Of a DNA stretch of 64,000 nucleotides, positions 41,007 to 41,169 are shown in pieces. The translations under genes were made by a program, and so were the position numbers. Each line of letters opens with the position of its first letter. The stretch's first letter is position 1. Source of the DNA: Bdellovibrionaceae bacterium UBA3535 (GTDB lineage: Bacteria; Bdellovibrionota; Bdellovibrionia; Bdellovibrionales; UBA840); contig DFOS01000024.1 in the NCBI GenBank assembly GCA_002376845.1, forward strand, positions 246,532 to 310,531, written 5' to 3'. The notes under the pieces were generated by a model. It saw nothing but the letters and a program-made list of their open reading frames with translations, was not told the DNA's origin and made no database searches.

Positions 41007-41169
41007 AACGGGCTCTCACAGAGTTGTACAGAGCTAGCCGTAGGCTTTTTCTTTTTTTGCGCTACCAAGACGCCTTAAAGAGCCCACAGAATGGCACAGA
41101 CGCAGGCTCTATTCGGGGTTTAATGGGTTTATACAGAGCTTGAGCAGAGCCATACAGGGGCGTGCAGAG
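41007..41169. repeat. Iteron-like cluster of nine (C/T/G)ACAGAG-type heptamers
   Basis: Copies at 41007, 41017, 41075, 41085, 41122, 41133, 41143, 41153 and 41163. Neighbouring copies are 9-11 bp apart. Confidence 0.6.

Follow-up and report, generated by a model that had tools for sequence, protein, structure and literature searches.

A degenerate array of phased heptamers beside tRNA-Ser 3′-end copies in a marine Bdellovibrionota chromosome: candidate orphaned binding sites of a decayed integrative element

Two attP sites provide the closest comparisons for the locus that we describe here. The attP of mv4, which recombines at the 3′ end of a tRNA-Ser gene, is 215 bp long and contains adjacent pairs of 11-bp arm sites (bioRxiv 10.1101/2023.11.06.565760), and the attP of ICEMlSymR7A is 283 bp long and contains five 10-bp motifs (PMC11963761). 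[quoted passage not shown] The attP of lambda is a further example of the arm-type (P and P′) sites of heterobivalent tyrosine recombinases. Elements of this kind also leave remnants. The CIME-type remnants of the ICESt elements of Streptococcus thermophilus, for example, are still flanked by att sites and have lost their recombination genes.

The locus under study is an array of heptamers in a 64 kb stretch of DNA, the whole of which was analysed and is referred to below as the window. Like the attP sites of mv4 and ICEMlSymR7A, it consists of short direct repeats of 10-11 bp, often paired, beside a core that is derived from a tRNA 3′ end. Unlike the attP arms of these two elements and of lambda, it has no nearby integrase or RDF gene, no partner-arm repeats and no IHF site, the number of copies (nine) is above the usual, and the core is only 12 nt long. 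Five of the repeats form tandem 10-nt units (41132-41179) that resemble, as far as sequence alone can tell, the sites of RdfS and BldC filaments. With the CIMEs the locus shares a short, gene-poor and integrase-less segment with target 3′-end copies at its boundaries; it differs from them in that the end copies are short and unequal (19, 12 and 17 nt) and in that no related autonomous element was found. Our preferred reading, which we hold tentatively, is that an integrative element at tRNA-Ser(GCT) has decayed and that the array is what remains of its binding sites, either arm-type or accessory, now orphaned.

Layout and phasing of the heptamer array

The original prediction described nine ACAGAG-type heptamers. 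All nine are present, although exact word location shows that every coordinate had been given 10 nt too low; the corrected span of the array is 41017-41179. The copies all share one orientation, on the + strand, and are arranged as four adjacent direct pairs, with a fifth tandem copy added to the last of them. Pair 1 (41017..41033) reads CACAGAG-TTG-TACAGAG, with heptamers starting at 41017 and 41027; both are at consensus, with 0 mismatches to YRCAGAGNNNYRCAGAG. Pair 2 (41085..41101) is degenerate and reads CACAGAA-TGG-CACAGAC, with heptamers starting at 41085 and 41095 and with AGAGCC (41079) and GGCTCT (41105) on its flanks. The remaining copies make up the block of five tandem 10-11-nt units (41132..41179), i.e. 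TACAGAG (41132), AGCAGAG (41143), TACAGGG (41153), TGCAGAG (41163) and CACAGAG (41173). The consensus of the array dimer is YRCAGAG-N3-YRCAGAG, and just five of the nine copies match YRCAGAG, so the copies are degenerate.

Neighbouring copies had been reported to lie 9-11 bp apart. This holds for six of the eight intervals, in which the spacing is 10-11 nt, while the other two are 58 and 37 nt. From one pair to the next the distances amount to 6.5 and 4.5 helical turns, which places the pairs on alternating faces of the helix. Several copies were also thought to be embedded in CAGAGCC/GGCTCTG in both orientations. We find CAGAGCC at 41145 and 41175, whereas GGCTCTG is absent and only the shorter GGCTCT occurs (41011 and 41105). 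The variant CAGAGCT is present at 41029 and 41134, bringing the occurrences of CAGAGCC and CAGAGCT to four.

Several statistics address whether the clustering is more than chance. When up to one mismatch is allowed, ACAGAG has 10 hits in 170 nt at the array versus 260-274 in the whole 64 kb, a range that depends on the merging of overlapping hits, and the corresponding −log10 p is 8.44. Among 250 Markov shuffles of local composition, two matched this clustering score with any hexamer. Gaps of 10-11 nt between ACAGAG-type hits (again with up to one mismatch) occur eight times in the whole window, six of them at the array. Likewise, five of the seven window matches to the dimer YRCAGAGNNNYRCAGAG with up to two mismatches fall in the array, and the tandem block has a lag-10 autocorrelation of 0.48, at about the 99.5th percentile. 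Exact 5-mer and 6-mer counts over 170 nt are not above those of the shuffles, and Tandem Repeats Finder reports no repeat at the array. The repeat cluster is real and non-random, yet weak and degenerate, and the 10-11 nt phasing is essentially restricted to the array locus within the window. The two strongest word clusters of the window are found elsewhere (~2100-2400 and ~3100-3200), inside a 476-aa ORF (2012-3442, + strand) that has no Pfam family, and suggest that this ORF encodes an internally repetitive protein.

A cluster of this kind could also be a neutral relic, in which a unit of ~10 nt was multiplied by tandem duplication or slippage in decaying non-coding DNA and in which a binding function is neither present nor past. 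We find this doubtful, and nearly as likely as an orphaned array of binding sites. The degeneracy of the copies agrees with it, as do the blank result from Tandem Repeats Finder and the fact that clustering of exact words is within chance. Natural decamer satellites with a CACAGAG core do exist, and our searches for a partner protein, a partner arm, structure and conservation all came back empty. The window-wide significance of the clustering speaks against neutrality, however, and the motif occurs in three separate blocks 37-58 nt apart, for which simple slippage is inadequate. In addition, the information is focused in the CAG(A)G core, and the spacers of 3 nt are unrelated to one another, a contrast that is partly ascertainment bias.

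Copies of the tRNA-Ser 3′ end and the segment that they bound

The proposal that the array lies beside an att-like site is borne out, as the tRNA-Ser 3′ end occurs three times on the same strand, with lineage-specific DNA between the copies. The source of the repeated end is tRNA-Ser(GCT) (39428..39519, + strand), which is followed by a terminator (39532-39552). Copy B (39697..39715, +) is an exact 19-nt copy of the tRNA 3′ end. Copy C (41249..41260, +), the att-like ‘core’, is an exact 12-nt copy with the sequence CTCTCTCCGCCA. Copy D (41895..41911, +) is exact over 17 nt, which comprise CCGCCA and the first 11 nt after the tRNA. The 12-mer CTCTCTCCGCCA therefore occurs at 39508 (in the tRNA), 39702 and 41249; these three occurrences, the only ones in the window, are all on the + strand within 1.75 kb, against an expected 0.15, and a partial fourth tRNA-end copy exists besides them. 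Copy C had been placed correctly, at a distance from the array end that is 70 nt and not ~80, and the heptamers are found 70-243 bp to the left of this core-like 12-mer. The block of identity in the core is only 12 nt and of low complexity.

Directly after copy C lies a bidirectional hairpin that resembles an intrinsic terminator (41259..41297, stem-loop 41271-41285). Homology between this terminator and that of tRNA-Ser was considered and dismissed: the likeness is generic, and elsewhere in the window an unrelated site reaches as high a score. The sequence upstream of copy C was likewise considered as a decayed tRNA-Ser body, which inspection ruled out.

Comparison with related metagenome-assembled genomes (MAGs) shows where the conserved chromosome ends. 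The order tRNA-Asn, tRNA-Arg(−), GmhA, tRNA-Ser(GCT)(+) is kept in these MAGs, and in a scan of a genome collection GmhA is 65-73% identical to homologues from Bdellovibrionales and Pseudobdellovibrionaceae MAGs, which assigns the window to the Bdellovibrionota. None of the window genes downstream of tRNA-Ser was found in the related MAGs, which have no tRNA-end copies either, and the genome-collection scan with GmhA returned no homologue of the spacer that hosts the array. The tRNA-end copies at the joints, together with the lineage-specific DNA, indicate that the segment after tRNA-Ser is a mosaic of acquired DNA. A blastn search of phages and plasmids showed no similarity. On the other side of tRNA-Arg, the gap to tRNA-Asn varies from ~0.3 to 4.5 kb across the related MAGs; in the window it is filled by a 1240-aa Cys- and Pro-rich protein without a Pfam family (34569-38291, −).

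The locus is also present on public contigs. The nine that cover the spacer are 100% identical over it, except for one base change in one contig, and the 11 contigs that carry the neighbouring genes are identical; further cluster members from the search with the neighbouring genes were alternative start calls only. Excision polymorphism was not observed among the identical public contigs. The sole difference among the public copies is a C to A change at 40926 in L004, within a run of nine C residues in the spacer (40918-40926). A low-coverage strain variant (L216) is identical to the window from 41178 to ~41766, save for two coding changes, and diverges completely thereafter. The break at ~41766 lies within the final codons of the 143-aa gene on the right-hand side of the array, and the contig reaches just 165 nt upstream.

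One further piece of the segment has a relative elsewhere. A stretch of 199 nt with a small ORF (39902-39714, −) recurs beside an IS66 transposase, with 90.5% nucleotide and 97% amino-acid identity. The differences in the ORF are mostly synonymous, so it is a real gene. Its counterpart is found at 664-862 of L218, a JGI contig, after the IS66 transposase, and the first 63 codons are conserved. The ORF has a promoter-like site next to it (39951-39924), no family hit, and a helical AlphaFold model of low confidence (pLDDT 53). The frame continues in the window through a tRNA-end copy into the second of the two elements that we describe next.

These elements, which we call E, are G+C-rich, ~110 nt long and present in two copies that are 77% identical. 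Copy 1 (38460-38583, −) lies after tRNA-Arg (ACG) and has flanking repeats at 38398-38459 and 38584-38645, and copy 2 (39570-39696, +) lies after tRNA-Ser (GCT) and has a flanking repeat at 39697-39715. Each is located just downstream of a tRNA gene and its terminator, and next comes the 3′ end of that tRNA, repeated in direct orientation. The left end of E is the exact reverse complement of the T-loop and 3′ T-stem of its own tRNA, so that tRNA and closing helix co-vary. Of the 35 pairs predicted by RNAalifold, nine show compensatory double changes between the copies, and the single-sequence folds are concordant (z of about −2.1 to −2.4). The elements have no Rfam match, no copy in relatives and no hit among viral contigs. 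They could be miniature tRNA-targeting integrative elements, or a structured RNA or ssDNA, and they look more unusual than the heptamer array. When contig L010 (TARA scaffold_6) is compared with 38398-38645, it has an additional 186-nt unit, which consists of the E element and the 62-nt repeat (the tRNA-Arg 3′ end and terminator), so that the repeat is present three times and E twice; either the copy number varies or the assembly is at fault so close to the contig end.

It is conceivable, though we would call it a long shot, that the array and the E elements together represent an undescribed class of small, integrase-less elements that are linked to tRNA 3′ ends in marine Bdellovibrionota and are moved in trans. 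The YRCAGAG repeats would then be a recognition platform for a trans-acting recombinase or directionality factor.

Coding, regulatory and replication readings of the spacer

The array lies in a gene-free spacer of 546 bp (40797..41342) between divergent genes for two signal-peptide proteins, and none of the nine public contigs has a gene called in the spacer. The G+C content is 0.41-0.50 at 40800-41299; in the adjoining DNA it is 0.27-0.29 on the left (40600-40899) and ~0.40 on the right (41200-41499). An ORF of 103 codons with a TTG start (40832..41143, +) overlaps the array. The original prediction gave these same coordinates and called the ORF unconvincing; we agree and judge it to be a non-gene, as it has neither a real homologue nor a public gene call, and belongs to no Pfam or PHROG family. 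The sole match among 1.84 billion representatives was rejected as a homologue, as it comes from translating a 59-nt satellite with only ten bases in common, ATGGCACAGA. The idea that the repeats are a coding artefact of this ORF, named at the outset as a possible refutation, fails because the ORF is not conserved. The array region is not coding.

The gene on the left encodes an orphan signal-peptide protein of 226 aa (40062..40742, −), for which a search of 5.8 billion proteins found no homologue. The gene on the right encodes a signal-peptide protein of 143 aa (41343..41774, +), whose homologues, at 59-68% identity, are found in unrelated contexts and are not syntenic; it is a cargo-like gene. 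One homologue, in L012 (4058-6829), lies 1.8 kb downstream of a tRNA-Ser(GGA) and beside a fragment of an IS240-type transposase, and the last 12 nt of that tRNA are likewise CTCTCTCCGCCA.

The position between two divergent genes raises the possibility that a host transcription factor, e.g. of the OmpR/PhoB type, uses the array as an operator or enhancer to control 40062-40742(−) and 41343-41774(+). Response regulators of this type bind head-to-tail direct repeats that are ~10-11 bp apart, and the array offers direct-repeat dimers with 10-bp spacing. A promoter-like site for the left-hand gene is found at 40801-40774. On the reverse strand the repeat reads CTCTGTR, which we take to have a weak likeness to TGT-containing direct-repeat boxes and count in favour of an operator. 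Even so, the array is >215 bp from the left promoter, a terminator hairpin separates it from the right-hand gene, and no further copy of the dimer precedes any other gene in the 64 kb; we consider host regulation unlikely. A stretch containing TGGCAC at 40867 was rejected as a sigma-54 promoter, since on direct reading its −12 element is out of register.

Alternatively, the spacer may be transcribed rightwards as a small RNA or 5′ leader of ~300-390 nt that ends at the 41271-41285 terminator, with the heptamers on display as motifs for proteins or RNAs to bind. In its favour, the spacer is rich in G+C and free of ORFs, the terminator on the + strand lies 46 nt before the next gene, and hairpins formed by GGCUCU and AGAGCY could show CACAGAR in their loops. 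However, the region 40800-41260 has no Rfam match at the gathering threshold or at E≤10, the folding z-scores are −1.6/−1.9 when the region is taken whole and ~0 when its thirds are folded separately, on either strand, and no promoter passed in a promoter scan. The array region folds no better than shuffled sequence and is not detectably structured, and a functional transcript seems to us quite improbable.

We also searched for the motif outside the window. Pair 1 was the pattern for a scan of metagenomes, a set in which the window's own locus is not included, and this gave 97 loci (76 unique), of which about half have extra conserved flanks. These point to an unnamed motif family of ~35 nt in phage-like contigs, A..SK-CTCACAGAG-SCW-TACAGAGC-STCTSAGGG, which is also written as CTCACAGAG-N3-TACAGAGC-STCTSAGGG with SK and SC flanks and for which a profile was made from 18 members. 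The array might be a degenerate remnant of such a phage regulatory motif: pair 1 matches 17 specified bases, the core of the ~35-nt family, the metagenome contexts include primase/helicase, methyltransferase and HNH genes, and one contig (L303) has arrays of 1, 5 and 3 decamers. Yet the match in the window is limited to the part that served as the search pattern, a half-model of STCTSAGGG gives no hit, and viral-contig scans with two other patterns from the array region gave no match. The 18-member profile aligns to the window only over the searched core (41012-41034), so membership of the array in this family is unsupported, and we rate a phage-motif origin as very unlikely. A loose four-copy pattern retrieved only microsatellites and perfect decamer repeats from viral contigs, and a literature search with the motif strings retrieved only unrelated primer sequences.

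The ~35-nt motif is of some interest in its own right. It occurs on many unrelated environmental contigs (L221, L235, L239, L255, L264, L265, L280, L282, L287, L299, L300, L310, L315 and others), often immediately before a TTGACA...GATAAT promoter or ~25 nt ahead of a start codon, and it may be a phage promoter or operator. In L303 (150-380) the decamers are CACAGAGNNN and stand at the start of repeated modules of ~120 nt upstream of small phage-like genes. A decamer satellite of ~80 copies, CCCCACAGAG, is present on marine metagenome contigs (L252, 1-800, and L263, 154-918).

Replication iterons of a plasmid- or phage-type origin were the second function suggested originally, and this suggestion has to be abandoned. 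The array resembles plasmid and phage iterons in having short, phased direct repeats in one orientation, and in nothing else. Its units are 10-11 nt long, compared with 17-22 bp for iterons, the 64 kb contain no rep gene, and the nearest match to a DnaA box is >3 kb away. An AT-rich unwinding element is likewise lacking, and plasmid or phage similarity was not found. The surroundings are core chromosome, with housekeeping genes such as GatB, Rho, RF1, SerRS, GroEL and RNR making up the rest of the 64 kb. Iterons are effectively excluded.

Arm-type sites and a decayed integrative element

The other function that was suggested originally, arm-type sites for an integrase or excisionase, fares better. 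The att context, the pairing of the repeats and their geometry agree with it, while an integrase or Xis, repeats on a partner arm and an IHF site were not found. The array supplies nine copies of a direct repeat of ~10-11 bp, in four adjacent pairs, that are distinct from the core and within ~250 bp of it, and the 3′ end of the target tRNA is duplicated at both junctions, in a block that is short and of low complexity. On neither strand does YRCAGAG occur at 38000-41016 or 41180-43000, so heptamers of a partner arm were not seen in these intervals. The scanned ORFs and precomputed Pfam hits of the 64 kb include no gene for an integrase, recombinase, Xis/RDF or Rep protein, no wHTH protein was identified within the window, and the IHF consensus WATCAANNNNTTR is not found between arm and core at the locus. 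The G+C content of the array is above that of typical AT-rich att arms, which also counts against this reading, as do the alternating helical faces of the pairs, the short and simple core and the lack of a family hit for the one small conserved ORF nearby (39902-39714).

Under the arm-type reading, what we infer runs from the binding of a protein and its identity to a link with recombination and a later loss of function. The array would lie in non-coding DNA, at the inner edge of a small segment with few genes that was acquired horizontally and accreted after tRNA-Ser(GCT). This segment would close with an attR-like junction, in which the terminator comes after the 12-nt tRNA 3′-end copy. The repeats may have originated as dsDNA sites recognised by a sequence-specific protein that belonged to the ancestral mobile element: a tyrosine integrase, through its arm-binding domain, or else an excisionase or regulator that oligomerises. 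As in other systems of this type, one protomer would bind per helical turn and the arm would be bent towards the core. With no recombinase gene left in the vicinity, the sites have probably been orphaned and are in decay.

The practical yield of this work is a corrected set of coordinates and the removal of the ORF and iteron readings. In its present standing the array is an orphan with weak support and little general consequence. If the repeats are indeed arm-type or accessory sites, they would be the footprint of a family of tRNA-Ser-targeting integrative elements in an abundant, uncultured marine lineage of the Bdellovibrionota, and YRCAGAG-N3-YRCAGAG would be a sequence handle with which the intact element and its recombinase may be reached.
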